Assembly: GCF_017876815.1 (NCBI RefSeq) | Contig: NZ_JAGIOS010000002.1 | Span: forward strand, 90,001 to 122,000 | Reading direction: 5' to 3' | Source: Sinorhizobium meliloti | GTDB taxonomy: Bacteria > Pseudomonadota > Alphaproteobacteria > Rhizobiales > Rhizobiaceae | DNA: 32,000 bases | Part shown: positions 2,394-28,890 of the stretch, piece after piece | Numbering within the stretch: position 1 is the stretch's first letter | Layout: the number at the start of each line of letters is the position of its first letter | Made by a program: the position numbers and the translations under genes | Notes under the pieces: model-generated | What the model was told of the DNA's origin: nothing | The model's input: the letters and a program-made list of their open reading frames with translations, nothing else | Database searches by the model: none

Positions 2394-3235
2394 GCTCCGC
2401 CTCCTCGGCGTTCGGCGACGAAAATGTCCTGATAATGCTCCGCTTCCTTCCCGCGCCAGGCGCCGAGCGCTTTCAGGGTGATTGCGAGACCGGCCCGGTC
2501 GAGGGCCCCGTCAAGAAAGCCGTCGTCGAAGCCGACGGCGGCAAGGCGGGGCATGTCCGGGACGTACCAGCACGGCCCGTCGCCATCGCGGGCGAAGGAA
2601 AGGCGCGCGTCGCGCCGGCCGCTCTCGTTGGCCGCCGCGACGTGATCGACCACGAAGGCGGTCATGAAGAGGCGGCCGCCGGGTTTCAGAAGCCTTCCGA
2701 CCTCTCGCAGATAGACGAGGACTTCGTCCGGCGGCAGATGCGTCACGATCGACGTCATGATCACAAAATCGAAGTGACCGTCGGCATAGGGCAGTTTCAG
2801 CGCATTGCCGCTGATCTTGCCGCTCGGATTATAGAGTTCATGGGCAATATCGACACGCTGGAACGCGAAATTCGGATAGACCGAGGTGATGAAGCGGCGG
2901 CACCAGCCGATGCCGCCCTCGACCGGATCTATCCCGCTGTAGTGTCCCTTCTCGAAATCCAGATACTGGGTGAGCGGAACAGCCATGCGGCCGATGCCGC
3001 AGCCGATATCGAGAACGCGGCTTTCCGGACGCACCCCCCCCAGCCGAATGAAGTGGCCGAGGAATTCGACGCCCACCGCCCTGAAGGAGCCGTCGCCGAC
3101 GAAGACACTGTCGGGATTAGGTTCCGGAAGGAAGCGGTTTCGAAGAATGCTCCCCAGCAGTGCCTCCACGCGTTCGTCGCGGGCGGGCAGTTCCGTTGCA
3201 GCTGTGTTTTCCTGGCGCAGCGCAGTCTCGCTCAT
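2390..3235 (-). CDS. wgeC: class I SAM-dependent methyltransferase (expE3/wgeC position)
   Basis: Motif I VLDIGCGIGRMA and post-I/II elements (GHFDFVIMTSIVTHL, LKPGGRLFMT). Start placed at ATG 3235 (MSETALRQEN...), forming an ATGA overlap with the stop of the upstream gene. The track's longer 346-aa version would overlap that gene by about 200 nt. Confidence 0.85.
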   Translation of the reverse strand: MSETALRQENTAATELPARDERVEALLGSILRNRFLPEPNPDSVFVGDGSFRAVGVEFLGHFIRLGGVRPESRVLDIGCGIGRMAVPLTQYLDFEKGHYSGIDPVEGGIGWCRRFITSVYPNFAFQRVDIAHELYNPSGKISGNALKLPYADGHFDFVIMTSIVTHLPPDEVLVYLREVGRLLKPGGRLFMTAFVVDHVAAANESGRRDARLSFARDGDGPCWYVPDMPRLAAVGFDDGFLDGALDRAGLAITLKALGAWRGKEAEHYQDIFVAERRGGGA

Positions 3236-6545: not shown

Positions 6546-7967
6546 TCAGTCCTCCCGAAAAGCCCGGTTGAAACTGTCGGAGACTGGGGCGACGAGGTAG
6601 TCGATTGCCGAACGCGATTTGTGCACGATCAGCACTTCCGCGGGCATGCCGGGATAGAGGCGGATGTCCGGGTTGGCGGCGAGCGATTCAGGCGCCACCT
6701 CCGCCCGTGCGACGAAATAGGCGACGTTGGACTTCTCATCCACGGATTGGTCCGCCGCGATATAGGTTACCTTGCCTTCCAGAGGCAGGTGCGAGCGCTG
6801 GTTATAGGCCGTCAGACGGATTTGCGTGCTGGAGCCGATCGTTATGCTGTCGATGTCACGCGTGCTGACATGCATCTCGATAAGCAGCGGTTCGTCCTCG
6901 GGGACGATGTCGAGAAGCGGCTGACCGGGGGTGACGGCACTGCCCGGCGTCCGCAGCTGAATGTTGGCGACGATGCCGGCCTGGGGGGCACGGATTTCCA
7001 GGCGGCGAAGCACGTCCTCGGCGGCGGTGATGCGCTGCTCGACTTCCGCAAGCTCCAGGCGCGCCGTGGTGATCTCTCCGGCGATCTCCGACTGGAAATC
7101 GGATTCGATGCCGATGAGCGCAAGCTCGGCCCCCGCCATCGCCTTTTCCGCCTGCGCCTTGTCGCCCGCGAGCTCACCGCGGGTTGCGGCGAGTTCGCTG
7201 AGCCGTGCGTCGATCTCGATGAGTTTCGAGCGCTGGGCGAAGGCTTTTTCGACAAGGGTCGCTATAGCCGTCCGCTGTTCGTTCATCAGCTCGATCTGCC
7301 TGTCGGTCGCCTGAAGCTGGGCAGTGAGGGACTTCGCCTTCTCCGAATATTCCTCGATCGTCTTGCGCTGGATTGCCAGCCGGCTCTTCTTGGCCTCGCT
7401 TCGCTTCTCGAAGAACGCGTTTTCCGCCGTTACCGCATCCGCGGCAGCCTCGCCTTCGGAGACAAGATCGGACGGGAAGCTCACCGCATGCAAGCCAGCC
7501 CGCTCGGCCCGCAGCCGTGCCAGTTTTGCGATCAGGCCGACACGGCGGCTCTGCAGCGCCTGCAGGTCGGAGCGGGCGCGCGTATCCTCGAGCTTCATTA
7601 GCGGCTGGCCGGGAGCGACATGGTCCCCCTCCTGAACGAGGATCCGGCCGAGCACGCCGCCCTCGAAGTGGCTGACCGTCTTGCGCTTAGAATCGACGAC
7701 GATCGTGCCGCTGGTGACGGAAGCACTGCTGAGCTCCGTCGAGAAGGCCCAGCCGAAGAAACCGCCGAAAGCAACGAGGATCGTCGTCAACCCGGCGATG
7801 ACGAGGCGCCGGATGGGCGAATGCGTGTTGTCCTCCGAAAGGTCCGGCTCTGGCATTGCCGCGGAGAGACGAGCCGGCGCGGCCATCGGCAGGCGGCGTT
7901 CCGGGCTTTCAGTCTTCACGGGCGGCTGCAGGTCGAGGCGAACCGGCAGGATCTTTTCCTTGTTCAT
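6546..7967 (-). CDS. wgdB: type I secretion membrane fusion protein, HlyD/PrsE family (ExpD2/WgdB-like)
   Basis: 473 aa. It has one N-terminal TM segment (RRLVIAGLTTILVAFGGFFGWAF), a long coiled-coil middle region and a C-terminal beta-barrel region (YPGMPAEVLI). ATGA start/stop overlap with the ABC gene at 7964-7967. Confidence 0.9.
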   Translation of the reverse strand: MNKEKILPVRLDLQPPVKTESPERRLPMAAPARLSAAMPEPDLSEDNTHSPIRRLVIAGLTTILVAFGGFFGWAFSTELSSASVTSGTIVVDSKRKTVSHFEGGVLGRILVQEGDHVAPGQPLMKLEDTRARSDLQALQSRRVGLIAKLARLRAERAGLHAVSFPSDLVSEGEAAADAVTAENAFFEKRSEAKKSRLAIQRKTIEEYSEKAKSLTAQLQATDRQIELMNEQRTAIATLVEKAFAQRSKLIEIDARLSELAATRGELAGDKAQAEKAMAGAELALIGIESDFQSEIAGEITTARLELAEVEQRITAAEDVLRRLEIRAPQAGIVANIQLRTPGSAVTPGQPLLDIVPEDEPLLIEMHVSTRDIDSITIGSSTQIRLTAYNQRSHLPLEGKVTYIAADQSVDEKSNVAYFVARAEVAPESLAANPDIRLYPGMPAEVLIVHKSRSAIDYLVAPVSDSFNRAFRED

Positions 7968-9733
7968 GATGCGGTACCTTCGCGTCTTGTTTCGCCCGGC
8001 ATCATGGTCGCCACCACATCCGTTCGCGGGCCGAACTGGCTGATGCGGCCGCCTTCCAGCACGAGCAGCTTATCGGCCACCTGCATGATGGCCGGCCGGT
8101 GGGCAATCAGGATGACGATGGCGCCGTCGCTGCGCGCCTCGTCGATCGCGCGTATGAGGGCGCGCTCGCCGAGGGCATCGAGATTGGCGTTGGGCTCGTC
8201 GAGGACGAGCAGGCGTGGCCGGCCGTAAAGGCAGCGCGCCAGCGCGATGCGCTGCCGCTGCCCGCCGGAAAGCGTCAGATGCCCATCGCCCACCGGCGTA
8301 TCATAGCCGAGCGGCAGTCGTCCGATCATGTCGTGGACGTCGGCGAGCCGCGCCGCCTCGAGCACCTTGTAGGGATCGCTCTCCGCCATTCGGGCGATGT
8401 TTTCACGGATGGTTCCTTCGAGAAGGGAAACCGATTGCGGCAGATAGCCCGCGATCTGTCCGAAAGAGCTCCGTTCCCAGAGGTAGACGTTGTTGCCGTC
8501 GAGGAAGACGCCGCCGGCAGTAGGTTTCAGAATGCCGACCAGAAGCCGCGCCAGCGTGGATTTGCCCGCCGCGGAAGGGCCGACGATACCAAGCACCTCG
8601 CCGGGTGAGAGCGAGAAGTTGATGCCCTTGATGATCGGCACGTCGATGCCCGGTGCCGCGTAGACCAGCTTGTCGACGACCAGGTCGCCTTCGGAGCGCG
8701 GCGTCGGCATGGTCTGGCGAACGGCAAGGTCTTCCTTCAGTGCCGTTTCGACGCGACGCCAGCTTGCGATCGCCAACACCCATTGGCGCCAGTTCTCGAT
8801 GACGGAATCGAACGGCAGCAGAAGGCGGCCGACGAGAATGGTGGTCGCCATCATCGCGCCCGGCGAGATCTCCTGTCTCATCACGAGCAGGGCACCGGTG
8901 CCCAGCGACACCACCTGGATGGCGAAGCGCAGCGAACGGGTGATCGAGGCCATCGCCCTGCTTCTGATCCCGCTGGCCTCCAGCACGCTGAGCGCGTGCA
9001 GTTGCGCTGCGCGCCATTTCTGGGCGAGCGCGGGCAGCATTCCCATGGCTTCGATGGCTTCGGCGTGACGTAATGTCGCACCTATTTTCGACACTGCCTC
9101 AATATTAGCCTGGCTTGCCTCTTTCATGAGCTGGCGCGTCAGGAGGTCGTTGAGAAGGCCGCAGCAGACGAGTACCACGACGGAGATCGCACCGATCAGT
9201 CCGAAGAGGGGGTGCAGCAGGAACAGAACACCCAGAAAGATGGGCGACCAGGCGGCGTCGAGGGGGGCGCTCACCGCCGAAGAGGTGAGGAAGCCGCGCA
9301 GCTCGGTGAGGTCGCGCAGCGACTGCGTCGCGCGCGCAAGTCCCTGATCGGCCGATGCCTGGACGGCGGCGGTCAGGACCGGCAGGTTCAGCCAGCGGAC
9401 CACGGCGCTGCCCATGGCCTGAAAGGTGAGGGCGCGAATGTAGTCGAGCACGCCCAGAACGATCAGCGCGCCCAGGGCGAGAATCGTCAGCATGACGAGC
9501 GTATCCATGCTCTGGCTGTTCAACACCCTGTCATGCACCTGCATCATATAGAGGGGCATGGTGAGCTGCAGGAGGTTGATGCAGGCGCTGAGCAGGGCTG
9601 CATAAAGAAGCGTCACGACGAACACACGCCGGGCCCGCAGAACCAACAGCTTCGGCGCGATTGTTCCGTTTTGCGCCGGTGTTGCCCGGTTGGGCCCCTT
9701 GCTAATCAAAGGATTTCGAACAGTATCACGCAT
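7964..9733 (-). CDS. wgdA: type I secretion ABC transporter, PrtD/PrsD family, no C39 peptidase domain (ExpD1/WgdA-like)
   Basis: 589 aa. N-terminal 6-TM domain. Walker A GPSAAGKST, signature LSGGQRQR, Walker B LLVLDEP. Confidence 0.9.
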   Translation of the reverse strand: MRDTVRNPLISKGPNRATPAQNGTIAPKLLVLRARRVFVVTLLYAALLSACINLLQLTMPLYMMQVHDRVLNSQSMDTLVMLTILALGALIVLGVLDYIRALTFQAMGSAVVRWLNLPVLTAAVQASADQGLARATQSLRDLTELRGFLTSSAVSAPLDAAWSPIFLGVLFLLHPLFGLIGAISVVVLVCCGLLNDLLTRQLMKEASQANIEAVSKIGATLRHAEAIEAMGMLPALAQKWRAAQLHALSVLEASGIRSRAMASITRSLRFAIQVVSLGTGALLVMRQEISPGAMMATTILVGRLLLPFDSVIENWRQWVLAIASWRRVETALKEDLAVRQTMPTPRSEGDLVVDKLVYAAPGIDVPIIKGINFSLSPGEVLGIVGPSAAGKSTLARLLVGILKPTAGGVFLDGNNVYLWERSSFGQIAGYLPQSVSLLEGTIRENIARMAESDPYKVLEAARLADVHDMIGRLPLGYDTPVGDGHLTLSGGQRQRIALARCLYGRPRLLVLDEPNANLDALGERALIRAIDEARSDGAIVILIAHRPAIMQVADKLLVLEGGRISQFGPRTDVVATMMPGETRREGTAS

Positions 9734-12088: not shown

Positions 12089-13561
12089 ATGTCTTCTAAC
12101 GTGAGGCAGTCGCCGGCGAAGCGAAGGCTGGTCGTGGCATCCGGTCTGGACCGGGAAAATTTCGAAGGGAGCGACATCGAGCATCTGGTTCATTTTCTCG
12201 AACCGGATGCAGCTTTGCGATTTCCCCTGCAGAACGCCTTTCCTCTTATCGCGCTTGCCTTCTCGGATGAGGGTGAAGCCGATCTGCGGGAAGGGCTCGC
12301 GTCCATCAATGCTCTTGGTACCATCCCCGAGATACCGCTTCAGCGGATCGACGCGGACGGTAAAGCGGACAGCCTTGCGCTCGTGCGGTCGCTGGTGGAG
12401 GGAGGAGTGGGTCGGCTCTCCCGTTTCACGTCGTCGGTAACCGCCGAGCTCGCCATTCTCCGGCGTGAGCGAGAAACGCTGCTCGAAAATTACCGCGCGC
12501 TGGAGGATGCCTTTCAGGCCCGCAATTGGGAACCGGTCGCGGAGATATTCGCCCACGACCCTTATGCCGACCCGAAGGACGAGGGCATCGGGCAGCTCCT
12601 TGCGACCGGCTGCGTCGAGCAGCTTCTTCCGGTCTCTAGTCTTGGCGTTGCGGGGGTCGCGCTGCACCTTCATTCCGTGCCCAGGGAGGGCGGCGAACTG
12701 GTCGTCATGCTGGGTTATGTCGAGAATGGCGAGGGCGTGGCCGAATGGACCGTGCCCTATGCGCAGCTCGCGGCAAACTGGAATTTCCTCGCCCTGCCGC
12801 GCGCTTGCGGCGGCGCCGCGAGAACGCTGCGGCTTAGAATCTCAACGGCCGGCACGGAGACTGTAGGGCTTTCACTCGGCTATCCGATCGCGAGCGAGCG
12901 GTACACAGCCCGCTCGGAAACCCCGCATCCCGATCTCGATCTCCGGCCCCTGGCGTTCCGCGTCTTTACGGGACTGCCCGGCGTCAAACCGACGCGCATG
13001 CCGAACATGATCGCTCCGACCGCCTTGCTCGAAGGCCACTTCATCGAGGATTATCGTCTGGCGGTCGAATTGCTTAGTCAGATCGTCGACGTTTCGGTCA
13101 CGCCGGTCGTTCCCGAATTCCAGACCGTCCGCTTCCTCGAGCATGAGAACGCGGTCGTTTGCCACCCGCTGCCGAGTGGAATCTCCGCCGGCACGATCGG
13201 CCGCGCAGTGGAACCCGGCACCATCTCCTTCTCCGCAAGCGCGATCATCGATCACCCGAAGGGCGCACCCGCGGCCGTGAGCTTCCTGCTCGCTCCGGCG
13301 AACTCCAATGCGCGCTCGGAAGTGGCGGAACTCGCGCGCAAGGGTGCTGCCAAGCCCTCGGCCTTCTTCAGCGGCTGGCGCGAGGTCACCTCCGAGCAGG
13401 CGGTCAACGTGAACTTTCAACTGGACAAGCCCGTGCGCGAGCCGATGGACCTCATGATTCTCAGCCGCGCGGTGACGGATACGGTCGATTTCTCCTGGCT
13501 CAAGGTCTCCGGCTTCCGATTGGTAAAGCAGTCCGCAGGGGCGTCCAATGTCCGGAAATAA
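12089..13561 (+). CDS. wgaA: protein of unknown function, first gene of the wga operon (ExpA1/WgaA position)
   Basis: Long ORF with strong GC3 bias, no TM segment or signal peptide, and no motif I recognise. ATG 12089 (MSSNVRQSPAKRR...); GTG 12077 is also possible. Confidence 0.75.
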   Translation: MSSNVRQSPAKRRLVVASGLDRENFEGSDIEHLVHFLEPDAALRFPLQNAFPLIALAFSDEGEADLREGLASINALGTIPEIPLQRIDADGKADSLALVRSLVEGGVGRLSRFTSSVTAELAILRRERETLLENYRALEDAFQARNWEPVAEIFAHDPYADPKDEGIGQLLATGCVEQLLPVSSLGVAGVALHLHSVPREGGELVVMLGYVENGEGVAEWTVPYAQLAANWNFLALPRACGGAARTLRLRISTAGTETVGLSLGYPIASERYTARSETPHPDLDLRPLAFRVFTGLPGVKPTRMPNMIAPTALLEGHFIEDYRLAVELLSQIVDVSVTPVVPEFQTVRFLEHENAVVCHPLPSGISAGTIGRAVEPGTISFSASAIIDHPKGAPAAVSFLLAPANSNARSEVAELARKGAAKPSAFFSGWREVTSEQAVNVNFQLDKPVREPMDLMILSRAVTDTVDFSWLKVSGFRLVKQSAGASNVRK

Positions 13562-16229
13562 GGAAAACTCGGACCTGATCGTGGTGGCAATGCCGCTTTA
13601 TGGCCACGCAGCCCTCGTCCTGGAGGCGATCGAGTCCGTGCTCGCTTCGAAGCTTGCCGGGTGCCGGGTGGCAGTGGTGGTGTCCGTCGATGGTGATCCG
13701 CGACAGGAGACATTCGATCAGTTGCTGCTCTATGCGGCGGCCCATCCTGCGGTTCATGTGCTTTTCGGGGCCAATGCCGGGCCGGGCGGGGCGCGCAATC
13801 GCGCGATCGACTACGTGCTCGCGAATCTGCCGGAAGCAGAGGCCGTCTATTTTCTCGATGCCGACAATCGCGTGCTGCCCGGGACCATCGAGACTCTCTA
13901 CCGGCAACTGCGCGCCAGCGGCTGCGGCTGGATCTATACCAATATCGACACGTTTTCGGTGAGCTGGCGCGCCCATTACGGCAATCGCTACTCGCGGCTT
14001 CTGCACTGCATCACGGACAATATCTGCGACACCGGTTCGATGATCTCGATCGACGTTTTCCGGGCGGGGGTCCGCTTCGACGACGACAGGCAGAACGGTT
14101 TCGAGGATTGGGAGTTCTGGCTGTCCTGCATCGAGCACGGCTTCGTGGGGGCGCCGTGCCACGACACGACCTTCGAATACCGGCTGAGGGCGGAAAGCCG
14201 CTTCAAGGAGGCGAACCGCGATCGCGCCGCCTCGGTGAGCTTCCTCAGAAAGCGCCACCGGGCGCTGTTCCAGCGGCCAATGCTGGTCGATTTCGAGCAC
14301 GAGGAATGCCCGCGCTATCTTTTCGCACGGACGGAAGATGCCGCCATTTCGTTCTTTACGGATCCGACCAAGACGCCCAGGCGTCTTCGCCTCGACGATA
14401 TCATTCCAGCCTTCTGGGCGAGCATCGGCGAGCCTGACAACGTTCACTTCCCGCCCTTCCTGATCGCCGGAAGCGGTGCCACGCTCGATCTGCTGCTGCG
14501 CTCCCGGATGCTGCCGAACGTGCTCTCCCATCTGGAGCGCCTGAGCGAGAAGGCCAACGTGGTCTTCGTCCAGCTCGGCAACGATGCGGCTCAGCGCAAG
14601 ATCGAGCCGGTCTTCCTGGAGGCCGGCGCCCAGCACAACGCACCGGCCGACCTCATCTTCCTGTCCACTTCGCTCGTGCGCGACGTCATTCATAACAAGG
14701 CGCTGGACTGGTTTGCCTCCATCGGCAACCAGCAGGTCTGGCCGACATCGGCAATTCTGAAAGTCCGCTTCCCTTTCCCGAGAAGCCTGCCGCGCCGCTC
14801 GCTCATCACGCCCCAGCAGGTGATGATCAATTGCGTCAATGCCATCGCGACCAGTCCGCTGCGGCGGACCGCCGGCAAACGCTGGACCTGGCGTCCGGCA
14901 CGGCTCGTTCCCTATTCCGACCTCCACAAGGCGCTTCGCCACGAGATCGGTGGCTCGCCCGTGTTGCCGCTCGGTCATAGCGAGGGAAGCAGGAAGACCG
15001 CAGCCCTGCTTGTTCCGAATGCATCCTTCGGCGGTGCCGAGAAGGTCGTATATGCGGCCTCGCGCGAGCTGAAGGCCGCCGGCTACGAGACCCATCTCTT
15101 CGTGCTCGGCACATCCAGGATGGATGTGATCGACGAGTTCGATCAGAGCTTCGACTATATTCACTTCTGGGACCAAGGCATTCCCGCCTGGGGCGGCTCC
15201 GGCTCGTTCCTGGGGCAGGACTTCATCGCCGAGGGCCACGACGTCGATTGGGCTGCGCTCAAGGGTCAGCTTTCCGGCTTCGACCTCGTGATCAACAATC
15301 ACGTCATGGCGGTGCATCCGCTTATCGCGCGGTTACGCTCGGAGGGAACGCGCACCGCCTGCTACCTTCACGTGGTCGACAATACCTCCTTCAAAAGGCC
15401 CGCCGGTCAGCCCTTCGCGGCGATTGCCCACGAGCATTGCTACGATGCCTTCCTGACCTGCTCGGAGCAGCTCAAGATCTATCTGCACAGCTTCGGCGTT
15501 CCCTATGAAAAGATCTTCGCCGTCCCCAACGGCGCGAGCTTCTCCGTGCCGCCCAAGGTTCTCGCGGAGGTGCTGTCGGTCAGGCGCATCGAACGCAAGG
15601 ACGATCGGCTTCGGGTCCTCTATATGGGTCGGCTCGATCAGCAGAAGGGGATCGACCGTCTCGCTGCGGCGTTCGCCGAATTGCGGGCTTCGCGCGTGCC
15701 ATTCGATGCCCGGGCGATCGGCGGGGAAATCCTCGCGGATGCCACCTTGTCGTGGACGGATCGCCTGAAGGACCTCGGCGTCGAGGTGCGCCCGCCGGTG
15801 TTCGCAAGCAAGGACCTGATCAAGGCCCTCGGTTGGGCGGATGTCCTTCTGATGCCGTCGCGCTGGGAGGGCGCTCCCTTGATGATCGCCGAGGCGCAGC
15901 AGCTCGGCTGCGTCCCGATCGCGACGGCAGTCGGTGCCGTCGACGAACTCATAACCGACGGCGAGGACGGCATCCTCATCGAGGCCGCCGCCGATCCCCA
16001 GGTGGTCCGGGACATGGCAAAGGCCATCGAGGAGGTGGCCAACAACCGCCAGATGCTCGCGCCCCTCATGGAGGGGTGCCTGAGAACGGCGGCACGCCGC
16101 TCATGGACGTCCTCCTTTTCCGAGTTCCTCGGCTGGTGCGACCGTTCCGTGAACAATTCATCGCTTTCGCGCGCAACGGTCATCCGTGGGCGCGAAGCAT
16201 CCAATCCCGGAGTTGCGGCCGTGGGCTGA
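13548..16229 (+). CDS. wgaB: bifunctional glycosyltransferase: N-terminal GT2 domain plus C-terminal GT4 domain (ExpA23/WgaB-like)
   Basis: 893 aa. GT2 region at residues ~10-230 (IVVAMPLYGH..., DxD in YFLDADN). GT4 region at residues ~485-860 (FGGAEKVV..., MPSRWEGAPLMIAEAQQLGCVPIATAVGAVDELITDGEDG). The ATG overlaps the wgaA 3' end by 14 nt. Confidence 0.85.
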   Translation: MSGNKENSDLIVVAMPLYGHAALVLEAIESVLASKLAGCRVAVVVSVDGDPRQETFDQLLLYAAAHPAVHVLFGANAGPGGARNRAIDYVLANLPEAEAVYFLDADNRVLPGTIETLYRQLRASGCGWIYTNIDTFSVSWRAHYGNRYSRLLHCITDNICDTGSMISIDVFRAGVRFDDDRQNGFEDWEFWLSCIEHGFVGAPCHDTTFEYRLRAESRFKEANRDRAASVSFLRKRHRALFQRPMLVDFEHEECPRYLFARTEDAAISFFTDPTKTPRRLRLDDIIPAFWASIGEPDNVHFPPFLIAGSGATLDLLLRSRMLPNVLSHLERLSEKANVVFVQLGNDAAQRKIEPVFLEAGAQHNAPADLIFLSTSLVRDVIHNKALDWFASIGNQQVWPTSAILKVRFPFPRSLPRRSLITPQQVMINCVNAIATSPLRRTAGKRWTWRPARLVPYSDLHKALRHEIGGSPVLPLGHSEGSRKTAALLVPNASFGGAEKVVYAASRELKAAGYETHLFVLGTSRMDVIDEFDQSFDYIHFWDQGIPAWGGSGSFLGQDFIAEGHDVDWAALKGQLSGFDLVINNHVMAVHPLIARLRSEGTRTACYLHVVDNTSFKRPAGQPFAAIAHEHCYDAFLTCSEQLKIYLHSFGVPYEKIFAVPNGASFSVPPKVLAEVLSVRRIERKDDRLRVLYMGRLDQQKGIDRLAAAFAELRASRVPFDARAIGGEILADATLSWTDRLKDLGVEVRPPVFASKDLIKALGWADVLLMPSRWEGAPLMIAEAQQLGCVPIATAVGAVDELITDGEDGILIEAAADPQVVRDMAKAIEEVANNRQMLAPLMEGCLRTAARRSWTSSFSEFLGWCDRSVNNSSLSRATVIRGREASNPGVAAVG

Positions 16230-16263
16230 GGCCCCGCCGGTTTCAAGAAGAAGGGTCGATTGC

Positions 16264-17442
16264 ATGCGTCCACGGATCCTCGTGACGGGAATTCCTGGTC
16301 ATTACACGCGCCTCGCCAACGGCGCCCAGGGATTATCCGTCTCCTATTCGGAGCGACAGAAACAGCCCGAGACGAAGGAGGAGTTTCTCCAGGAGCTTCG
16401 CAATATCAGCAATACGGGAAATTACCTGATCGGCGAGGGGGCGCTGCGCGCGATTGCCCCCCATGCGAAGCAGGTCCCGTTCTGGCACCTCTATAATTGC
16501 AGCCAGAACGGCGTCGGGCTCGACGAGTTCAACGCCAATTTCGACATCTGCGTCTTCACCTGCGCGAACCTTCTGCGCAAGGGCCTGTCTGCGGATGCCG
16601 AAGCGGAAGTGCTGGGCAAGCTCAAGATGCCGATCGTCATGCTCGGCATCGGCCTGCAGAACCGCCGAGACCTTGAAAACAGCCTGCCGGAGGGCACGAA
16701 GCGGCTTCTGGACGTTCTCAAGGAGCGTGAGCACTATTTCCTGACGCGCGGGTTCGAGACCGCCGGCTTCCTCAAGGACCAAGGCTTCTCCTATGTGCAG
16801 CCGACGGGCTGCCCTTCGATCTATCTGATGCCGCACAACATGCGCACCTCGCTGAAGAAGCTGCCCAATGTACCGGTCGGCAAGGCGCGGACCATCTTCT
16901 CCGGCTATCTGGGTGCCAACCACGATTGCATCGTCGACGCCGCGGCGCTGGCGCCCGAGGGTTCGCGTCCCCAATACGTCATCCAGGACGAGTTCCTCCA
17001 TTTCGACATGAACGTCGAAGCGAACGGCGACGGCCGCGTCTACGACTCCGCCTCCGGCACGATGCTCGGCGAACTGAGCTATCCGGGCACCGAAAGACTG
17101 AAAACGCCCTTCGACGTGCGGACCTTCTTCGATACGAACCAGTGGCGTGCGTGGGCGTCTTCCATGGATTTCAATTTCGGCCGGCGTTTTCACGGCTCGA
17201 TCATCGCGATGCAGGCGGCCGTGCCGAGCCTGATGGTGGCAGTGGACGACCGGATGCGCGAGATGCTCGGTTACACGGGCCTGCCGGCGATCGACGCAGT
17301 CGAGGTCGACAAGGCGGAAAACCGCGCCGAATTCGTCGCCGACCACCTGGCCGGGCTCAATGCGTCCGAACTGGTCGACAGGTATTCCGATCGCGAGCGC
17401 ACGTTCCGCTCGGCGCTCCGGGAGATCGGGATCGGGCAATAA
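16264..17442 (+). CDS. wgaD: polysaccharide pyruvyltransferase-like protein, paralogue 1 (ExpA4/WgaD position)
   Basis: Start placed at ATG 16264 (MRPRILVTGIPG...), after the wgaB stop. The motifs NTGNYLIGEGA and GRRFHGSIIAMQAAVPSLMVAVDDRMREM resemble the N- and C-terminal signatures of the PS_pyruv_trans family. This family call is inference. Confidence 0.7.
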   Translation: MRPRILVTGIPGHYTRLANGAQGLSVSYSERQKQPETKEEFLQELRNISNTGNYLIGEGALRAIAPHAKQVPFWHLYNCSQNGVGLDEFNANFDICVFTCANLLRKGLSADAEAEVLGKLKMPIVMLGIGLQNRRDLENSLPEGTKRLLDVLKEREHYFLTRGFETAGFLKDQGFSYVQPTGCPSIYLMPHNMRTSLKKLPNVPVGKARTIFSGYLGANHDCIVDAAALAPEGSRPQYVIQDEFLHFDMNVEANGDGRVYDSASGTMLGELSYPGTERLKTPFDVRTFFDTNQWRAWASSMDFNFGRRFHGSIIAMQAAVPSLMVAVDDRMREMLGYTGLPAIDAVEVDKAENRAEFVADHLAGLNASELVDRYSDRERTFRSALREIGIGQ

Positions 17443-17484
17443 ATCTCCGCGAGCGTTTGCAGGCTCTAATCTCAGGTGTAATCG

Positions 17485-18657
17485 ATGCGTATCTTGCTTA
17501 CGGGAATCCCGTCCTATCTGCAGCGAACCGTCTCGGGCGTGTCCGGCGCGGAGGTTCGGCACAGGCCCTATTTCGACGAGGTCAGAACCAAGAAGGAACT
17601 GATCGAGCAGGTCAAGAAGATCGCCAATACCGGCAATTATCTGATCGGCGAGGGCGCGGCCCATGCTCTTCGCGGGCATGACGTCACCTATTTGCCCTTC
17701 TGGCATCTCGTCAACAGCAGGAACTCCGACGAGGCTTATGAAAGCCTCAACGAGGAATTCGACATCTGCGTCTTCGCTTCGGCCAACCTCCTGCGCCCGG
17801 GCTACTCGGCGGATCTCGAGGCGGAAGTCTTCGAGAAACTGAAGATGCCGGTGGTGATCATGGGGATCGGTATCCAGCGGAGGGAAGGGCTCAAGGAAAA
17901 CCTGCCTGCCGGCACGCTCAAGTTCCTGGAGGTGCTTAGGAACAAAGAGAGCTTCTTCCTCACGCGCGGTTATTTCACGGCCGAGTTCCTGAGGGAACAG
18001 GGCATGAAGTTCGTGAAGCCGACGGGTTGCCCCTCGCTCTTCTTCGCGCCGGCCGAGATGAAGCGTTCGCTCGCCGCGCTCGCCAATCCGGAGCTCGCTT
18101 CCTCTCAGAAGATCGCCTTCGGAGGCTATCTCGGAAGCGTGGCCGACACGATCGTCGACGCCCACGCGCTGCTGAAACCGGACAGCGTCGCGAGCTACGT
18201 CATCCAGGATGAGGTAGTCGCCTACAATCTCTCCCTTCCCGTGGACGACGACTTGCCCGTCTACGACCGCGCTAGCGGGCGCATCACCGGCCAGACCGCC
18301 TACAAGCATTCGGAGAAATGGCAGCGCAAACACGAGCTCCTGGTGTTCTTCGACACCAATCAATGGCGAAGCTGGGTCTCCGCGCGCGATCTCTGCTTCG
18401 GCCGCCGTTTTCACGGCTGCATCATCGGCATGCAGGCGGGCGTGCCGTCGCTCATGATCGCGGTCGACGATCGCATGCGGGAAATGCTGGAATTCATCGG
18501 CTTCCCCTACATGGAGGCGGCAGTCTGGAACCGGGAGCAGGACAGGAAGGCCTATCTTGCCAGCTTCCTCTCCAAGATCGATGCGCAGGCTGTCATCGAC
18601 CGGTACTCGGCCTGTGAGACCAACTTCCGCAATGCTCTGGCGCATGTCGGGCTCTAG
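17485..18657 (+). CDS. wgaE: polysaccharide pyruvyltransferase-like protein, paralogue 2 (ExpA5/WgaE position)
   Basis: 390 aa and collinear with wgaD over its full length (NTGNYLIGEGA, FDICVF, KMPVVIMGIGIQ, PTGCPS, YVIQDE, FFDTNQWR, GRRFHGCIIGMQAGVPSLMIAVDDRMREM). Confidence 0.7.
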   Translation: MRILLTGIPSYLQRTVSGVSGAEVRHRPYFDEVRTKKELIEQVKKIANTGNYLIGEGAAHALRGHDVTYLPFWHLVNSRNSDEAYESLNEEFDICVFASANLLRPGYSADLEAEVFEKLKMPVVIMGIGIQRREGLKENLPAGTLKFLEVLRNKESFFLTRGYFTAEFLREQGMKFVKPTGCPSLFFAPAEMKRSLAALANPELASSQKIAFGGYLGSVADTIVDAHALLKPDSVASYVIQDEVVAYNLSLPVDDDLPVYDRASGRITGQTAYKHSEKWQRKHELLVFFDTNQWRSWVSARDLCFGRRFHGCIIGMQAGVPSLMIAVDDRMREMLEFIGFPYMEAAVWNREQDRKAYLASFLSKIDAQAVIDRYSACETNFRNALAHVGL

Positions 18658-19816
18658 AGCAATTCCGGGGAAAGTTCGAAGCGGTTTGCGGCCCGGAACT
18701 TCGGCGAAACGAAGAGCGGGAGCATTGCTCCTTGGCGCTTTGCTGACGCTTTCCGCACCCGCGCATGCCGATGAAGCTTCGGCGGCTCGCATTGGGGTCA
18801 ATCGGATGAATCTCGCCTGGCTGTCCCGGGGCGACCAGGAGAGAATTCTGACGGACATCGCCGCCAGCGGCGCGACGGATGTCCGCCTTTCGCTTTCGCG
18901 TCCGGTGGACAAGAGTATAGAGGCGCTGGCAATCGCCCACCGGCTGGGTCTGCGGATCCTTCTCGAGATCCAGCTGGGAAACAAAAGTTACTATCCCCAG
19001 AGCGTAGGACCGAGAACGGGCCATGGCCGCATCTGGGATGTCTATCGACTGTCGGACTTGGATCTCGCCCGGTATCGCAAGGAATTGCAGCAAGCGCTTC
19101 AGCGTATCGATGCCCTCGGCGTTCGTCTTGTAGCGGTCGAGCCGGGAAACGAAATCAACTATGCCGGCTACAACGGCGATCTTGCCGTCTATCCTAAGCC
19201 GGGCGCCCGGACACCGCGCAGCATCGCCGAGCTACGGGAGCGGGCAAGGTTTGAACGCGGCCTCGACAACTACGTCAAGGCGCTGGAGATCAGCCGATCG
19301 GAGCTGCGCAACACCGTGCACAGCCGCGACGCAGCCATCATTTCCGCCGGTCTCTCGGATATGAGCGCGGCAGAAGCCGACAGGCGCGGGATGGAACGGC
19401 TCGATCCCGGCGAATTCGTCGCCCTCCTTCGTCAACGCGGCATCGACAGTCTGGTCGATGCCTATGGCATCCACATTTACCCCGGAAGGAAAGCCGCGCC
19501 CGCCATTTCAGCGCGGGTCAGAAGCCTTCTCGACTTCTGCCGGACCGCGGCAACCGGCAAGTCCTGCTGGGTCACGGAATGGGGGATCGCAAACAAGGCG
19601 CGCTCCTGCCCGGTGGACGATCGATCGCGAGGAGAGGCGATCCGCGTCATGCGCGCGACCTTCGGCGAACTGATCGACGCAGGCCGATTGACCGCTGCCT
19701 ACTATTACGACTGGGACACAGAGCCTTCCTATAGCCTCTGGCGCTGCGGCAAGCTCAGTCCCGCCGGCGCCGCGGCGATCGGACCGGGCGACGGTGCAGG
19801 AGCGCAAGCACGATGA
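18644..19816 (+). CDS. wgaF: exported glycoside-hydrolase-like protein, clan GH-A (TIM barrel) type (ExpA6/WgaF position)
   Basis: Signal peptide with an RR n-region and AXA site ([23 protein letters not shown]). Putative acid/base motif VEPGNEINY and nucleophile motif WVTEWG. The start at ATG 18644 (or 18632) overlaps the wgaE end. Confidence 0.7.
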
Positions 19817-19838: not shown

Positions 19839-20720
19839 ATGAAGGGCATCATCCTTGCGGGCGGCCGGGGAACCAGGCTCTACCCGGTTACAATCTCGGT
19901 TTCGAAGCAACTGCTCCCCGTCCATGACAAGCCGATGATCTATTACCCACTCGGCATGCTGATGCTGGCCGGTATTCGCGAGATACTGGTGATCACCATG
20001 CCCCGGGACCGGCCGCTGTTCGAGGAGTTGCTTGGGGACGGCAGCCAGTTCGGCCTCGCGATCTCCTATGCCGAGCAGCCGGAGCCGAACGGGCTCGCCG
20101 AGGCCTTCATCATCGGCCGGGATTTCATCGGCAACAGCTCCGTGGCGCTTATCCTCGGAGACAATATTTTCTACGGCGCCGGCCTGCCCGAGCTTTGCAG
20201 CGATGCAGCGGCCCGGCCGAGCGGTGCCACGATCTTCGCCTATCGTGTGGACGATCCCGAGCGCTACGGCGTCGTCAGTTTCGATGGAGAGACCGGGCGG
20301 GCCGAGACGATCGAGGAGAAACCTGAGCTGGCGAGATCGAGCTGGGCGGTGACCGGTCTTTATTTCTATGAAAACAGCGTGCTTGAGATCGCTTCTTCAA
20401 TAAAACCTTCAGCACGGGGCGAACTGGAAATCACCGATGTCAACCGGGCCTATCTGGAGCGCGGCGACCTTCACGTCTGCCGCCTCGGGCGGGGGTATGC
20501 CTGGCTCGATACGGGCACGCACGACAGCCTGCACGATGCCGCTTCCTTCGTGCGCACGATCGAGCACCGGCAGGGCGTCAAGATCATGTGCCCGGAAGAG
20601 ATCGCCTTAGAGCTCGGCTACGTTTCGGCGGATCAGGTGCTTCAGCGTGCCGACCTGCTCGGTAAAAACGACTATGCGATCTATCTTCGGCGACGGGTCA
20701 GGGAGCTCTCGGATGCTTGA
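19839..20720 (+). CDS. rfbA: glucose-1-phosphate thymidylyltransferase (RmlA/RfbA; ExpA7/WgaG position)
   Basis: [18 protein letters not shown]...[17 protein letters not shown]...LGDNIFYG, the classic RmlA N-terminus. ATG 19839 has a GGAG RBS. The track's 5' extension overlaps wgaF. Confidence 0.95.
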
Positions 20721-21276
20721 AGTCAGGTCCCTGGGCCTCGACGGGGTTCTGGAAATCGTTCCGCGCAGACTCGGCGACGAGCGCGGCTTCTTTTCGGAGA
20801 CCTACAATGCGGAGACCCTCGCCGCCCACGGCGTCGCGGCGATCTTCGTACAGGACAACCATTCCTATTCCGCGGCTGCGGGCACGCTGCGCGGCCTGCA
20901 CTATCAGCTTCCGCCCAAGGCGCAGGCGAAGCTCGTTCGCGTTGTTCGAGGCAGGGTGTTCGATGTCGTGGTCGACATTCGCAAGGGTTCGCCGACCTTC
21001 GCGAAATGGGTCGCTCTCGAACTCTCGGCGGAGAAATGGAACCAGATTCTGGTGCCTGTCGGCTTCGCCCACGGCCTCGTGACGCTCGAGCCGGAAACGG
21101 AAGTTCTCTACAAGGTAAGCGAGCATTACAGCGCTGAGCATGAGCGGTCCATCCGCTACGACGATCCTGAGATCGGCATAGGCTGGCCTGCCGCTACCGA
21201 CCGTCTGCAACTGTCCGCGAAGGACAGGAACGCACCACTGCTCCACGAATCCATTCTTTTCGAGTTCACCGCGTGA
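20713..21276 (+). CDS. rfbC: dTDP-4-dehydrorhamnose 3,5-epimerase (RmlC/RfbC; ExpA8/WgaH position)
   Basis: RmlC cupin motifs: [49 protein letters not shown]. The ATG at 20713 overlaps the rfbA end by 8 nt. Confidence 0.95.
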
Positions 21277-21287
21277 GGGGAGAAACC

Positions 21288-22358
21288 ATGCGAGTTTTGG
21301 TAACGGGTGGCGCGGGTTTCATTGGATCGGCGGTTTGCCGGCACCTGATCCGAAACGGGGCCGAGCGCGTCGTCAATGTCGACAAGCTGACCTATGCCGG
21401 CAGCCTTGCGTCGTTACGGGCGGTGGAAAGCGATCCGCACTATGCTTTCTACCGGGCCGATATCCGCGACGAACAGGTTCTGCTCCAGATCATGCGCCGG
21501 GAGGGGATCGATGCGATCATGCATCTTGCTGCCGAGAGCCATGTCGACCGCTCGATCGAGAGCCCCGACCCATTTATGGAGACCAATGTCCTCGGCACGG
21601 TGCGGTTGCTTAACGCCGCACTGGCCTACTGGTCGGGGCTCGGCACCGAGGAGCGGGGGCGCTTCCGGTTTCACCATGTCTCGACCGACGAAGTTTTCGG
21701 CGACCTTCCGTTCAACCGCGGGATTTTTTCCGAGGAGACTCGCTACGCACCCTCGTCCCCTTACGCGGCTTCTAAAGCAGCGGCGGATCACTTCGCTCGT
21801 GCGTGGTACCACACCTATGGTCTTCCGGTGGTGGTCTCGAACTGCTCCAACAATTACGGCCCGTTCCATTTTCCCGAGAAGCTGATCCCCCTGACGATCA
21901 TCAATGCCATAGAGGAGAAGCCGTTGCCGCTCTACGGCTCGGGAGCGAATGTCCGCGATTGGCTCCATGTCGCCGATCATGCGACTGCGCTGGAACTGGT
22001 CGTCAGCCGGGGCAGGCCAGGGGAGAGCTACAATATAGGCGCCCGTGCCGAGCGCAACAATCTGTCGGTCATGGAATGCATCTGCGATCTGCTCGACGTC
22101 CGGTTGCCGCGAAAGGGCGGTGACAGCTATCGGGACCTCATCACTCTTGTCCCCGACCGGCCCGGCCACGACCGCCGCTATGCGATCGATCCCTCGAAGG
22201 CCGAGCGTGAGCTTGGCTGGAGGCCGAAGCGGAGCTTCGAGGGCGGGTTGAGCGAGACTGTCGACTGGTTTCTCGCAAACAGGTGGTGGTGGGAGCCGAT
22301 CCGGCGCGAGCGCTATTCCGGCGCCCGCATCGGCGGGCAGCATCGGAGCGTTGCGTGA
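21288..22358 (+). CDS. rfbB: dTDP-glucose 4,6-dehydratase (RmlB/RfbB; ExpA9/WgaI position)
   Basis: MRVLVTGGAGFIGS Rossmann motif, HLAAESHVDRS, YAASKAAADH (YxxxK). ATG 21288 with a GGGGAG RBS; the track start at GTG 21273 is less likely. Confidence 0.95.
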   Translation: MRVLVTGGAGFIGSAVCRHLIRNGAERVVNVDKLTYAGSLASLRAVESDPHYAFYRADIRDEQVLLQIMRREGIDAIMHLAAESHVDRSIESPDPFMETNVLGTVRLLNAALAYWSGLGTEERGRFRFHHVSTDEVFGDLPFNRGIFSEETRYAPSSPYAASKAAADHFARAWYHTYGLPVVVSNCSNNYGPFHFPEKLIPLTIINAIEEKPLPLYGSGANVRDWLHVADHATALELVVSRGRPGESYNIGARAERNNLSVMECICDLLDVRLPRKGGDSYRDLITLVPDRPGHDRRYAIDPSKAERELGWRPKRSFEGGLSETVDWFLANRWWWEPIRRERYSGARIGGQHRSVA

Positions 22359-23257
22359 GAATTGCCGTGACCGGCTGCGAGGGCCAATTGGCCCTCGGCC
22401 TCGTGGAACGGTCTCATAGGCGGTCGGGAATGGAGGTCGTTACGATCGGGCGGCCGCACCTCGATCTCACAGAGCCGGCAACGATCCTGCCGGCGATCGA
22501 GCGATGCCGGCCGGACCTCGTCGTCTCGGCGGCAGCTTACACGGCCGTCGACCAGGCCGAAAGCGAGCCGGAGGCGGCTTTCGCGGTCAACGCGTTCGGG
22601 GCTGGCGCGGTCGCTGAGGCGGCCGCCTGCCTCGAAGTGCCCATCGTCCATATTTCGACGGATTATGTCTTCGACGGGAGCAAACCGGGGAGCTATGCAG
22701 AGGGCGACACACCGGCTCCGCTTAGCGTCTACGGCGCTTCCAAGCTTGCCGGAGAAAGCGCGGTTGCCGAGGCAACTCCCCGCCATCTCATCCTGCGCAC
22801 GGGCTGGGTCTACAGCCCCTTCGGGAAGAATTTCGTCAAGACCGTCCTGCGGCTCGCAGAGGAGCGCGAAGATATCGCCGTCGTTGCGGATCAACGGGGA
22901 AATCCGTCATCGGCGATCGACCTTGCGGACGCGATCCTCGATATTTCCGCGCGGCTCACGAAATCCCGTCAGGACGCCGCTTTTGGCCTCTACCACCTCG
23001 CTGGCTCGGGCGTCGTAAGCCGGGCCGATTTCGCGCGGCATGCTCTTGCGGCGAGCCGTGCCGCAGGCGGTCCCTGGGCGCATGTTCGGGACATCGCGAC
23101 GGGTGGGTTTCCGACACCTGCAAGCCGCCCTGCAAACTCGTCGCTGTCGAGCGCCAAATTCAACGCGACCTTCGGCCAGGCCATGCCTGCCTGGCAGGGT
23201 TCCGTGGAGCGAACCGTGAGGCGGCTTGTCGAGAGCATTTCGAGTGAAACCAGTTAG
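22355..23257 (+). CDS. rfbD: dTDP-4-dehydrorhamnose reductase (RmlD/RfbD; ExpA10/WgaJ position)
   Basis: VRIAVTGCEGQLA..., AAYTAVDQAE, ISTDYVFDG, YGASKLAGE (YxxxK). The GTG at 22355 forms a GTGA overlap with the rfbB stop. The track's 5' extension lies inside rfbB. Confidence 0.9.
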   Translation: MRIAVTGCEGQLALGLVERSHRRSGMEVVTIGRPHLDLTEPATILPAIERCRPDLVVSAAAYTAVDQAESEPEAAFAVNAFGAGAVAEAAACLEVPIVHISTDYVFDGSKPGSYAEGDTPAPLSVYGASKLAGESAVAEATPRHLILRTGWVYSPFGKNFVKTVLRLAEEREDIAVVADQRGNPSSAIDLADAILDISARLTKSRQDAAFGLYHLAGSGVVSRADFARHALAASRAAGGPWAHVRDIATGGFPTPASRPANSSLSSAKFNATFGQAMPAWQGSVERTVRRLVESISSETS

Positions 23258-23302: not shown

Positions 23303-24121
23303 CTAGCCGGCGAGTTCGGCGCGAAGACCTTGGATGAAAGCGAGAAGCGCCTGCTGCGGATCCGCGCCTTCGCCGGCGAGAACGGTTACGCCCCAGTTTC
23401 TGAGCACCGCTTCCTGCACGGGATTCGGCCGGTACATGAAGACGTAGGAAGGAGGCCGGTCCTTTTCGTGTCCGGATCTCCGCCAGGTGCTCCAGATGCG
23501 GTGGAGAAGCAGGCGGATGTTCAGGTCCGACATGCTGTAGCCGATGAACAGCACGGTCGCCTCGAGTGCGTCGCTGCGAAAGCGGACGTCCAGCGGAGAG
23601 TCGAAGGACAGCCGGTTGAAATAGTCGGTTTCGGTCAGGATGAGCGTGTCTTCATCGTCGAAGTCGCCGTGATACTTGATGATTCGCGTGACGCCTGCGG
23701 GCGCGGAGGCGATGTCGCGCACGTGGCTGATCTTTGCATAGCGCTTGCCGTAGACCTCGTAGGCGATTTCCAGATTGCTGTCGTAGTTGGTCGTGTAGAT
23801 CACCGGAAAGTCGAGCTCGACGATCAACCGATGCAGTTCCGAACGTTCGATGCGCTCCGGCGAGACGCGCCAGTTTTGCCGCATCCATTCGCACAGCGAG
23901 GTGATGTCCCCGTGTTGCAGGCGATAGCATTCGGCGATCGTCTGATAGGAGATGTCGGGATCGTGCATGACGGAATCGTCCAGGCGCAGCTCGCTCAGAA
24001 TGTGATCGACCAGCGTTTTCCACGACGGCAATCCGACGCTCATCGACACGCCAGCCCCGACAAACAGGACCGCGTGCCGGCGCTCCAGCGCCGAAACGAT
24101 CTCCTTGGTGTGTTTCTTCAT
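23303..24121 (-). CDS. stand-alone SIR2-like (SIR2_2 / ThsA-N-terminal-type) domain protein, putative NAD+-consuming enzyme
   Basis: 272 aa. Motifs: LFVGAGVSMSVGLPSW (res 19-34), TTNYD (110-114), KYHGD (149-153), FIGYSMSD (192-199). AGGAG RBS 6 nt before ATG 24121. Convergent with rfbD. Confidence 0.85.
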   Translation of the reverse strand: MKKHTKEIVSALERRHAVLFVGAGVSMSVGLPSWKTLVDHILSELRLDDSVMHDPDISYQTIAECYRLQHGDITSLCEWMRQNWRVSPERIERSELHRLIVELDFPVIYTTNYDSNLEIAYEVYGKRYAKISHVRDIASAPAGVTRIIKYHGDFDDEDTLILTETDYFNRLSFDSPLDVRFRSDALEATVLFIGYSMSDLNIRLLLHRIWSTWRRSGHEKDRPPSYVFMYRPNPVQEAVLRNWGVTVLAGEGADPQQALLAFIQGLRAELAG

Positions 24122-27499: not shown

Positions 27500-28579
27500 T
27501 CAGGCCTCGGGATTCGAATTATGCCGGCGCCAGATATCCAGGAGCAGCAGCGTTACCGTGAAGGCTACCGGACCGATCACCAGCCCCGCCGACCCGAATA
27601 CGATTATCCCTCCGATCATGCTCATGAAGGCCGTCAGCGTGTGGAGCTTCAGGCGGTCTCCCACGAAAATGGGGTAGAGAAGATTGTCGATGGTCGCAAC
27701 CACTCCGGCACCCCAGGCGACGAGTATGAGCGCCTTTCCCCACTCGCCCCCCAGGGCCAGCGACAGCGCGGCCGGAAGCCAGACGATAAAGGCGCCGAGC
27801 ACCGGCACGACGGCGAGCAAGCCCATGGCGAGACCCCAGACCACAGGCGCCGGCAGACCGAGCAACCAGAACATCAGGCCGCCCATCGCGCCCTGTACGG
27901 CAGCAACGGCCACCGTGCCGAAGACGACGGCCTGCACCGTTTCGTTTACCCGCGTGAACAGCCGGTTCATCTCCTGCGAGCTGAGAGGGGAATATTCCTT
28001 CAGCGCGCCCAGTGCTTGCTGGCCGTCGCGCAGAAAATAGAACAGAAAATAGAATGTCAGGATGGCGTCGACGATCTGGGCAACGGAACCACGTACAAAT
28101 GAGGCGCTGAAGTTGGTCAGCCAACTGGTCGCACTACCAGCGATTCCGGCAAGATCAAGCTGCGTTTCGATCCAGACGACGACCGGCGCAAGGCGTGGAT
28201 AATTGGCGAGCGCATCGCGCCAGGTGCCCGACCTCACCGCTTCCTCGACGATCTGTGCCCCTTTGGCAGCTTCGTTCACCAATCGTTCCGCCATGAAGGT
28301 GAGCGGAACAGCCACGACGAAGGCGGCGATCGCCACGGTCGCCGCGGCCGCGGCTTCCGGGTAGCGGAGCCGTTTTTCGATCCGACGATGCAGCGGCCGG
28401 AACATCACAGTGAGCACGAGCGCCCATGTGAGCGCGGGGAGGAAGGGCACGGCGAGGAAATAGCAGACGACCAATCCCACGACGAGAGCGACAAGGATTG
28501 CCAATGTTCGCGAACGCCGCGGCGTCAGTAGGCGGTCTGGAGCATGCTTTTCCTCACCTACGGAAACACTCTTCGTCAT
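27500..28579 (-). CDS. AI-2E family transporter (PerM/YhhT, UPF0118) permease
   Basis: 359 aa with about 8 TM segments. Characteristic C-terminal half: GLPAPVVWGLAMGLLAVVPVLGAFIVWLPAAL...IDNLLYPIFVGDRLKLHTL..F.S.IGG...FG..GLVIGPV. Confidence 0.85.
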   Translation of the reverse strand: MTKSVSVGEEKHAPDRLLTPRRSRTLAILVALVVGLVVCYFLAVPFLPALTWALVLTVMFRPLHRRIEKRLRYPEAAAAATVAIAAFVVAVPLTFMAERLVNEAAKGAQIVEEAVRSGTWRDALANYPRLAPVVVWIETQLDLAGIAGSATSWLTNFSASFVRGSVAQIVDAILTFYFLFYFLRDGQQALGALKEYSPLSSQEMNRLFTRVNETVQAVVFGTVAVAAVQGAMGGLMFWLLGLPAPVVWGLAMGLLAVVPVLGAFIVWLPAALSLALGGEWGKALILVAWGAGVVATIDNLLYPIFVGDRLKLHTLTAFMSMIGGIIVFGSAGLVIGPVAFTVTLLLLDIWRRHNSNPEA

Positions 28580-28890
28580 CGCGTTTTCTTCGCCCGTTTG
28601 CGGCAGTTTGGGTCCAGTGGGACGGACTTGTCAAAAGATAACGCATCTCAACCGAAAGACGTTGCGACAGCCTGATGTAAACGGGCGCATCATGCGAGGA
28701 ATTGCCCCGGCAGTGCCCGTTGGTCTTGGCTGGTGGGAGCCACTACACAACACTTTGAACATGGTTTGGTAGCGCAATCGGCGTGGATGCTGGACAGTTC
28801 GTGCGGGCGAGAAAGTGGGACCCTTGGGGCATGGCGATGGCGCATGGGCGCCGGCGCGTTTTTGGTTCGGTGGAACAAAGGAAGATAGAT

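Follow-up and report, generated by a model that had tools for sequence, protein, structure and literature searches.

The four rml genes of the galactoglucan cluster

Exopolysaccharide II (EPS II, or galactoglucan) of Sinorhizobium meliloti is a polymer of Glc-Gal disaccharide repeats (Glc:Gal 1:1) that carry acetyl and pyruvyl groups, a published composition which agrees with the description in the original prediction for this locus. Yet the wga operon for this polymer ends in four genes, wgaG to wgaJ, which are homologous to rmlA, rmlC, rmlB and rmlD, the genes of dTDP-L-rhamnose synthesis. The genes and their mismatch with a rhamnose-free polymer have been in the literature since 1997, and the paradox is thus not new: according to two reviews that cite Becker et al. 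1997, dTDP-glucose and dTDP-rhamnose are the products of ExpA7-10/WgaG-J, and the former is thought to be the glucose donor of EPS II, which leaves the rhamnose branch without explanation. In this paper, we have examined the block in a window of 32,000 nucleotides of S. meliloti DNA (contig NZ_JAGIOS010000002.1, positions 90,001 to 122,000), and have followed it through about 80 related loci. The comparison indicates that the block was recruited once and has since been inherited together with the wga operon; all four of its genes are under purifying selection, and it has been lost repeatedly.

All four genes lie on the + strand. The gene wgaG (expA7; 19839..20720) is rmlA and encodes a glucose-1-phosphate thymidylyltransferase of 293 amino acids (aa); wgaH (expA8; 20713..21276) is rmlC, for a dTDP-4-dehydrorhamnose 3,5-epimerase of 187 aa; wgaI (expA9; 21288..22358) is rmlB, for a dTDP-glucose 4,6-dehydratase of 356 aa; and wgaJ (expA10; 22355..23257), which begins with a GTG start codon, is rmlD, for a dTDP-4-dehydrorhamnose reductase of 300 aa. 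Each protein exceeds the equivalog cut-off of its NCBIfam model, with RmlA scoring 453 bits against TIGR01207 (cut-off 361), RmlC 206 bits against TIGR01221 (cut-off 156), RmlB 453 bits against TIGR01181 (cut-off 365) and RmlD 302 bits against TIGR01214 (cut-off 224); as the E-values range from 1e-61 to 1e-136, these matches are not due to chance. The expected Pfam domains were also matched in all four proteins, among them PF00908 in RmlC and PF04321 in RmlD (3e-94), and the GenBank record of strain ml21 (CP140937.1) names the genes rfbA, rfbC, rfbB and rfbD.

Furthermore, all four proteins align over their full length with solved Rml enzymes, and their catalytic motifs are intact, as the original prediction had it. 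RmlA aligns with Salmonella RmlA (1IIM, E = 2e-122) and keeps GGxGTRL, LGDNIF, EEKP and WLDTG, including the complete nucleotide-binding motif GGxGTRLxPxT and the catalytic Asp and Lys residues. RmlC has the cupin fold with the catalytic His/Asp dyad, Lys and Tyr, and the His of GLHYQ, the Lys of AKLV, YKV and YDD are all aligned with 3RYK (E = 1e-54). RmlB, an extended short-chain dehydrogenase/reductase with the GxxGxxG motif (GGAGFIG), the Thr-Asp-Glu triad (STDEV) and YxxxK (YAASK), aligns from residue 1 with the Salmonella enzyme 1G1A (E = 5e-136). Finally, RmlD, which contains the RmlD substrate-binding domain, matches 8CTR (E = 5e-60) and 1KBZ (E = 1e-58), and retains STDYVF with the catalytic Thr as well as YxxxK in the form YGASK. 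Judged by orthology, wgaG-J is thus a canonical, intact pathway that is predicted to produce dTDP-L-rhamnose: RmlA would convert Glc-1-P and dTTP to dTDP-Glc, RmlB would convert this to dTDP-4-keto-6-deoxy-Glc, RmlC would yield dTDP-4-keto-L-rhamnose, and RmlD would reduce the latter to dTDP-L-rhamnose.

Position in the operon and gene junctions

The 3.4-kb rml stretch is 100% identical to the S. meliloti pSymB record NZ_CP021795.1, and 99.7-99.9% identical to most other S. meliloti strains among the matches listed; the locus is expA7-expA10, or wgaG-wgaJ (SMb21324-SMb21327), of the exp/wg galactoglucan cluster on pSymB. The block follows wgaA-F immediately and on the same strand; only 22 nt separate the wgaF stop from the rmlA start, with no space for a promoter or terminator of its own, and a convergent gene lies 45 nt behind the end of rmlD. 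The four genes are thus the last of the wga operon, as had been predicted. A scan of the region for consensus promoters and terminators found nothing over the shuffled expectation, this consensus being unsuited to rhizobial promoters. A published transcriptome paper, which also confirms the naming of wgaG-J, reported that the whole wgeH-wgaJ region is co-induced.

The internal junctions of the block measure -8, +11 and -4 nt. The genes rmlA and rmlC share an 8-nt overlap, ATGCTTGA, and rmlB and rmlD a 4-nt GTGA overlap in which the GTG start of rmlD lies on the stop of rmlB. Both overlaps, on which the proposed translational coupling had been based, are exact; the coupling claim needs correction only at rmlC/rmlB, where an 11-nt spacer holds a GGGGAGA ribosome-binding site if ATG 21288 is taken as the rmlB start. 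This ATG is the start annotated in GenBank, and it pairs with residue 1 of Salmonella RmlB. A start at GTG 21273 would give a third overlap, but it is probably not the real one.

Distribution and loss of the linked rml block

The survey was made with a WgaE query, which gave one locus from each of 77 species; loci from complete plasmids were added, genes were mapped by tblastn, and about 80 related wga loci could be evaluated. The core wgcA-wgaA-B-D-E-F is conserved in Sinorhizobium, Ensifer, Rhizobium, Neorhizobium, Pararhizobium, Mycoplana, Mesorhizobium, Pseudaminobacter, Aminobacter, Kaistia and Bosea. Intact rmlACBD stands directly after wgaF in 23 of the ~80 loci (our own locus counted), six of which, of the Mesorhizobium/Pseudaminobacter type, have ~1.2 kb of extra sequence between wgaF and rml. 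The operons with linked rml span Sinorhizobium, Neorhizobium, Pararhizobium, Rhizobium, Mycoplana and Mesorhizobium/Pseudaminobacter.

One further rmlACBD is found behind a variant operon in S. americanum CCGM7 (L002 13358-19897), in which wgaA-F has been swapped for a distant module of DUF6212, GT2/GT4 glycosyltransferase, pyruvyl-transferase and GH16 genes while the rml block was kept. Phyllobacterium zundukense (L094 13659-20163) has a similar variant operon, with rmlACBD absent behind it. The proteins of this variant, which has a single pyruvyl transferase, show 23-38% identity to those of S. meliloti; it adjoins the conserved wge/wgd genes and, in S. americanum, also wggR and wgcA.

Several loci retain only part of the block. 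In four of the ~80 loci, which form the S. terangae clade, rmlACB is present and rmlD deleted: it is cut to its first 53 codons in L017 (14954-15112), and was undetected in L018, L020 and L089. The remaining rmlA, rmlC and rmlB of this clade are intact and under purifying selection, with a ratio of nonsynonymous to synonymous substitution rates (dN/dS) of 0.05-0.27, and downstream of the rml remnant no obvious replacement reductase was seen. Six other loci carry rml pseudogene debris right after wgaF (L047, L056, L057, L071 and L084 at ~12400-14900, and L010 at 27805-28669); since each has its own pattern of deletions, these are independent decay events. Locus L051 was left out of this count, as it has frameshifts in every gene and is probably an assembly artefact. 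In none of the ~80 loci is rmlA retained alone, and when the block decays rmlA is lost along with the rest.

All glycosyltransferases of the cluster are kept without linked rml in Ensifer canadensis, E. adhaerens, Pararhizobium A13 and Phyllobacterium A18/5-2. In all four of these strains, the rml-less ones that were checked, a set of rml genes was found elsewhere (L005, H174, H179 and H37), which fits, weakly, a replacement in trans. Moreover, rml-less clusters can carry another gene for precursor supply at the far end of the wge operon, namely a galU-like gene in E. canadensis (L006 2837-3724), whose 321 bits fall just under the cut-off of 326.8, and galE in Phyllobacterium (L011 2379-3398; L094 12197-13216). 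Within this family of clusters, genes of precursor supply thus seem to be accessories that can be exchanged for one another. A nucleotidyltransferase at the end of a DUF6212 cluster in Paracoccus yeei was considered as a parallel to rmlA and dropped, for it is GlgC-like and adjoins glgX.

Origin, co-inheritance and selection

On a tree of WgaB+D+E, built by neighbour-joining with no bootstrap, the rml-positive loci are scattered, which by inspection implies roughly eight or more separate losses of the block. On the other hand, the linked RmlA+C+B proteins form one clade, apart from the unlinked rml sets, and three subclades within it mirror the WgaB+D+E tree. A single linked clade with mirrored subclades indicates, as far as the trees go, that the rml block was recruited once and was then co-inherited with the wga operon.

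All four genes are under purifying selection. By the method of Nei and Gojobori, dN/dS was 0.06-0.09 for rmlA, 0.09-0.19 for rmlC, 0.08-0.16 for rmlB and 0.15-0.26 for rmlD, with 0.04-0.14 for the wga genes. Values above 1 for wgaF in several pairs were disregarded as alignment or frame artefacts arising from differing starts of the high-scoring segment pairs. In some pairs (L023 vs L030, L043 vs L050), dS of the rml genes (0.6-2.5) is far over that of the adjacent wga genes (0.25-0.4), which suggests that members of the linked clade have occasionally exchanged rml alleles by recombination.

These data bear on the possibility that the block is a neutral passenger, placed by chance at the 3' end of the operon. 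Its frequent loss, and the exchange of rml alleles to which the excess dS points, are what such a view would predict. However, 23 related operons and the S. americanum variant retain all four genes of the block intact, its dN/dS is 0.06-0.26, the junctions of translational coupling are conserved, and it has a single origin and has been co-inherited with the operon. In addition, copies that are not under selection visibly turn into pseudogene debris, which disfavours the view, and we consider it very improbable. The earlier argument against a passenger, made from the tight operon structure, thus finds independent backing.

Glycosyltransferases and export functions of the cluster

For a polymer with two linkages, the wg cluster is rich in enzymes: it encodes six glycosyltransferase (GT) domains, a methyltransferase and extra pyruvyl-transferase paralogues. 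The S-adenosylmethionine-dependent methyltransferase gene wgeC lies at 2390-3430 on the - strand, though for EPS II no methyl group is reported; the two pyruvyl transferases at 16264-18657 (+) are 47% identical, versus one pyruvyl group per repeat. These surplus enzymes leave scope for a minor residue not yet reported. The interval 7683-8660 of locus L012 was noted beside wgeC and the additional pyruvyl transferase.

Scans with Pfam and other profiles recognised no initiating phosphoglycosyl transferase, no Wzx/Wzy and no Wzm/Wzt polysaccharide exporter in the cluster, and WgeE and WgeF had no Pfam match. The sole ATP-binding cassette (ABC) system, at 7964-9733, consists of ABC_membrane and ABC_tran domains and stands beside an HlyD adaptor and an RTX calcium-binding protein; judged from its domains and neighbours, this ABC/HlyD pair is of the type I protein-secretion kind. 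The suggested resemblance to the adaptor and terminator chemistry of ABC-type O-antigen pathways is accordingly weak, as the cluster holds no Wzm/Wzt-type polysaccharide ABC exporter.

Possible use of dTDP-L-rhamnose

The comparative data would be explained if the rml block entered an ancestor of the operon once, travelled with it since, and was maintained whole by selection for the entire pathway. It might then be a supply module borne by the cluster, whose dTDP-L-rhamnose would be used whenever the operon is expressed. The consumer, the least secure element of this scheme, may be one of the surplus glycosyltransferases, as six GT domains are present for two linkages; it would add rhamnose in sub-stoichiometric amounts, as a primer, a cap or a rare decoration, which would be invisible to bulk composition analysis. 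The module would be expendable where another rml locus supplies the precursor, and this would explain its repeated loss. That the rml module feeds the cluster's own product is the reading we tentatively prefer, though we put it at somewhat less than an even chance.

A more specific version, close to the original prediction, is that the polymers of the wg family, including EPS II, bear a single rhamnose per chain, as a lipid-linked primer at the reducing end or as a cap at the non-reducing end; this we hold to be unlikely. The residue, possibly O-methylated by WgeC and added by a surplus glycosyltransferase, would serve to start synthesis or to fix the length of the chain, and would thereby control the ratio of high- to low-molecular-weight EPS II. 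Only the low-molecular-weight fraction is reported to be symbiotically active.

A conceptual precedent, by resemblance only, is the linker of mycobacterial arabinogalactan, decaprenyl-P-P-GlcNAc-Rha (WbbL), for which a full rml pathway serves to place one rhamnose per chain, and which primes a galactan built by bifunctional glycosyltransferases. Unlike the mycobacterial system, the wg cluster has no WbbL-like enzyme at threshold and no GlcNAc-1-P transferase. Another comparison is with WbdA-D of Escherichia coli O8/O9a, an ABC-transporter-dependent O-antigen system with adaptor and terminator chemistry: both clusters have large multi-domain glycosyltransferases and a methyltransferase, and neither has Wzy, but the ABC system of the wg cluster is of the type I secretion kind, and no coiled-coil kinase/methyltransferase like WbdD was identified in it. 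As for the rml genes themselves, the four enzymes, their catalytic motifs and the translational coupling are as in rfbBDAC of Salmonella and E. coli and rfbCBDA of Agrobacterium tumefaciens. Unlike those of canonical rfb/rml operons, however, wgaG-J have the order A-C-B-D and lie in an exopolysaccharide operon whose reported product lacks 6-deoxyhexose, and unlike those of canonical O-antigen operons they have no rhamnosyltransferase, Wzx/Wzy or Wzm/Wzt adjacent to them.

Several observations weigh against a use of rhamnose in the cluster's own product. The reported sugars of EPS II are only Glc and Gal, at 1:1, and a literature search by gene names and locus tags yielded no mutant data for wgaG-J. 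About 45 of the ~80 related operons have no linked rml, and at least six show independent decay, yet every glycosyltransferase was kept; the linked block is dispensable for keeping the cluster. No glycosyltransferase of the cluster co-varies with rml among the ~80 operons, and none reaches the threshold of a rhamnosyltransferase model. The best, the GT2 domain of WgeB, has 30 bits against TIGR01556 (cut-off 200.55), below its scores for other GT2 families, and matches of this kind do not reveal the donor of a glycosyltransferase. The S. terangae clade, which keeps rmlACB under purifying selection though rmlD is lost, does not fit a simple requirement for dTDP-L-rhamnose, unless a reductase acts in trans. 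Finally, the rml sets found elsewhere in four of four rml-less strains say little about complementation, because rml genes are common in Rhizobiaceae.

Alternatively, dTDP-L-rhamnose might serve another glycoconjugate, such as the O-chain or core of lipopolysaccharide (LPS), a K-antigen or an uncharacterised pSymB polysaccharide, and its genes would stand in the wga operon only for co-regulation, through ExpR/Sin, MucR and PhoB, which would remodel the surface when EPS II is made. The repeated loss of the block from retained clusters, and the lack of a recognisable rhamnosyltransferase in the wg cluster, would both be expected in this case, and some S. medicae and S. meliloti strains have a second rmlACBD set or RmlD-like gene on pSymB, which implies rhamnose-type glycans. 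Likewise, in relatives rml mutations act through LPS with pleiotropic effects on other polysaccharides. In A. tumefaciens loss of rml disturbs the UPP-GalN polysaccharide, and for the Azorhizobium oac2 rml mutant a pleiotropic effect on another surface polysaccharide is reported; in both cases rml is linked to LPS, and defects of LPS and the envelope, not rhamnose in the affected polymer, are held responsible. On the other hand, the linked rml genes form a monophyletic group that has diverged in step with the cluster on plasmids and chromids of several genera in two families, which speaks against the idea, since an outside consumer would not travel with the cluster, and S. americanum kept the block although its wgaA-F was replaced. 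To our knowledge, no rhamnose-containing glycan has been described in S. meliloti 1021. On balance we regard a use in another glycan as rather doubtful.

The explanation given in the two reviews, that RmlA (WgaG) supplies dTDP-Glc to the β-glucosyltransferases of EPS II and that rmlB, rmlC and rmlD were carried along in an inherited rfb block, agrees with the finding that related clusters often carry a single nucleotide-sugar supply gene instead, such as the galU-like gene of E. canadensis or galE of Phyllobacterium. The literature searched yielded no biochemical data on wgaG-J and no test of donor specificity. It is hard to reconcile with this explanation that rmlB, rmlC and rmlD are under purifying selection over dS > 1, and that the whole block, rmlA included, decays, with no lineage keeping rmlA alone; the idea is weakened by both, which argue that dTDP-L-rhamnose itself is used, and not dTDP-glucose alone. 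RmlB, moreover, would drain dTDP-Glc, and dTDP-rhamnose is a feedback inhibitor of RmlA. We therefore think it quite improbable that dTDP-Glc is the only product that matters. If the rhamnose pathway feeds a primer or terminator of EPS II, a puzzle of nearly 30 years would be explained, and the control of chain length in a model symbiosis would become accessible; if it serves another glycan, the surface would bear an uncharacterised molecule that contains rhamnose and shares its regulation with EPS II. The question of the role of the rml genes is sharpened by their single origin, purifying selection and repeated loss.

Other rml-type genes and neighbouring genes

The original prediction had also raised redundancy with other rml paralogues, which were looked for on pSymB. 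Here strains 1021 and 2011 carry no RmlD-like gene other than wgaJ; roughly half of the S. meliloti strains, our own included, have two. A second RmlC-like gene on pSymB, located by a query of the CDP-pathway type (queries of the S. fredii and E. adhaerens types were unsuccessful), stands with rfbF and rfbG in a CDP-glucose pathway context, with no RmlA, RmlB or RmlD. This locus (L091 1637-4710 and 12690-15516, corresponding to ~374.6-388.5 kb of CP140937.1 on S. meliloti pSymB) also contains methyltransferases, an SDR epimerase and an acyltransferase, and looks like an uncharacterised CDP-6-deoxyhexose pathway. In S. medicae ml20, pSymB carries a second rmlA-C-B-D block (L095 7482-10867) at a distance of ~86 kb from the exp cluster. 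This block shows 55-71% identity to the wga-linked genes, and has an rmlB that is broken into two frames.

The upstream part of the operon (12089..19816) lies on a single strand with gaps of at most 67 nt. According to the Pfam scan and the GenBank annotation, which was taken from CP140937.1 with coordinates shifted by 162 nt, it comprises, all on the + strand, wgaA (DUF6212; 12089-13561), wgaB (GT2+GT4, 893 aa; 13548-16229), wgaD and wgaE, both of the pyruvyl-transferase family (16264-17442 and 17485-18657), and wgaF, an annotated glycoside hydrolase (18725-19816). Upstream of wgaA are wgcA, wggR, the type I secretion pair wgdAB, the RTX protein gene wgeA and wgeB-D; the gene order wge-wgd-wggR-wgcA-wgaA..J is the same as in the known S. 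meliloti exp/wg cluster, with no difference at the sequence level. At the other end, the convergent gene that bounds the operon at its 3' side (23303..24121, - strand) lies outside the pathway; it encodes a SIR2_2 domain (PF13289, 4e-26) and is annotated as a SIR2 family protein. Beyond it are small genes of the general-stress type (CsbD, DUF2934 and BON domain), and together these may form a defence or stress island at the border of the exp cluster.

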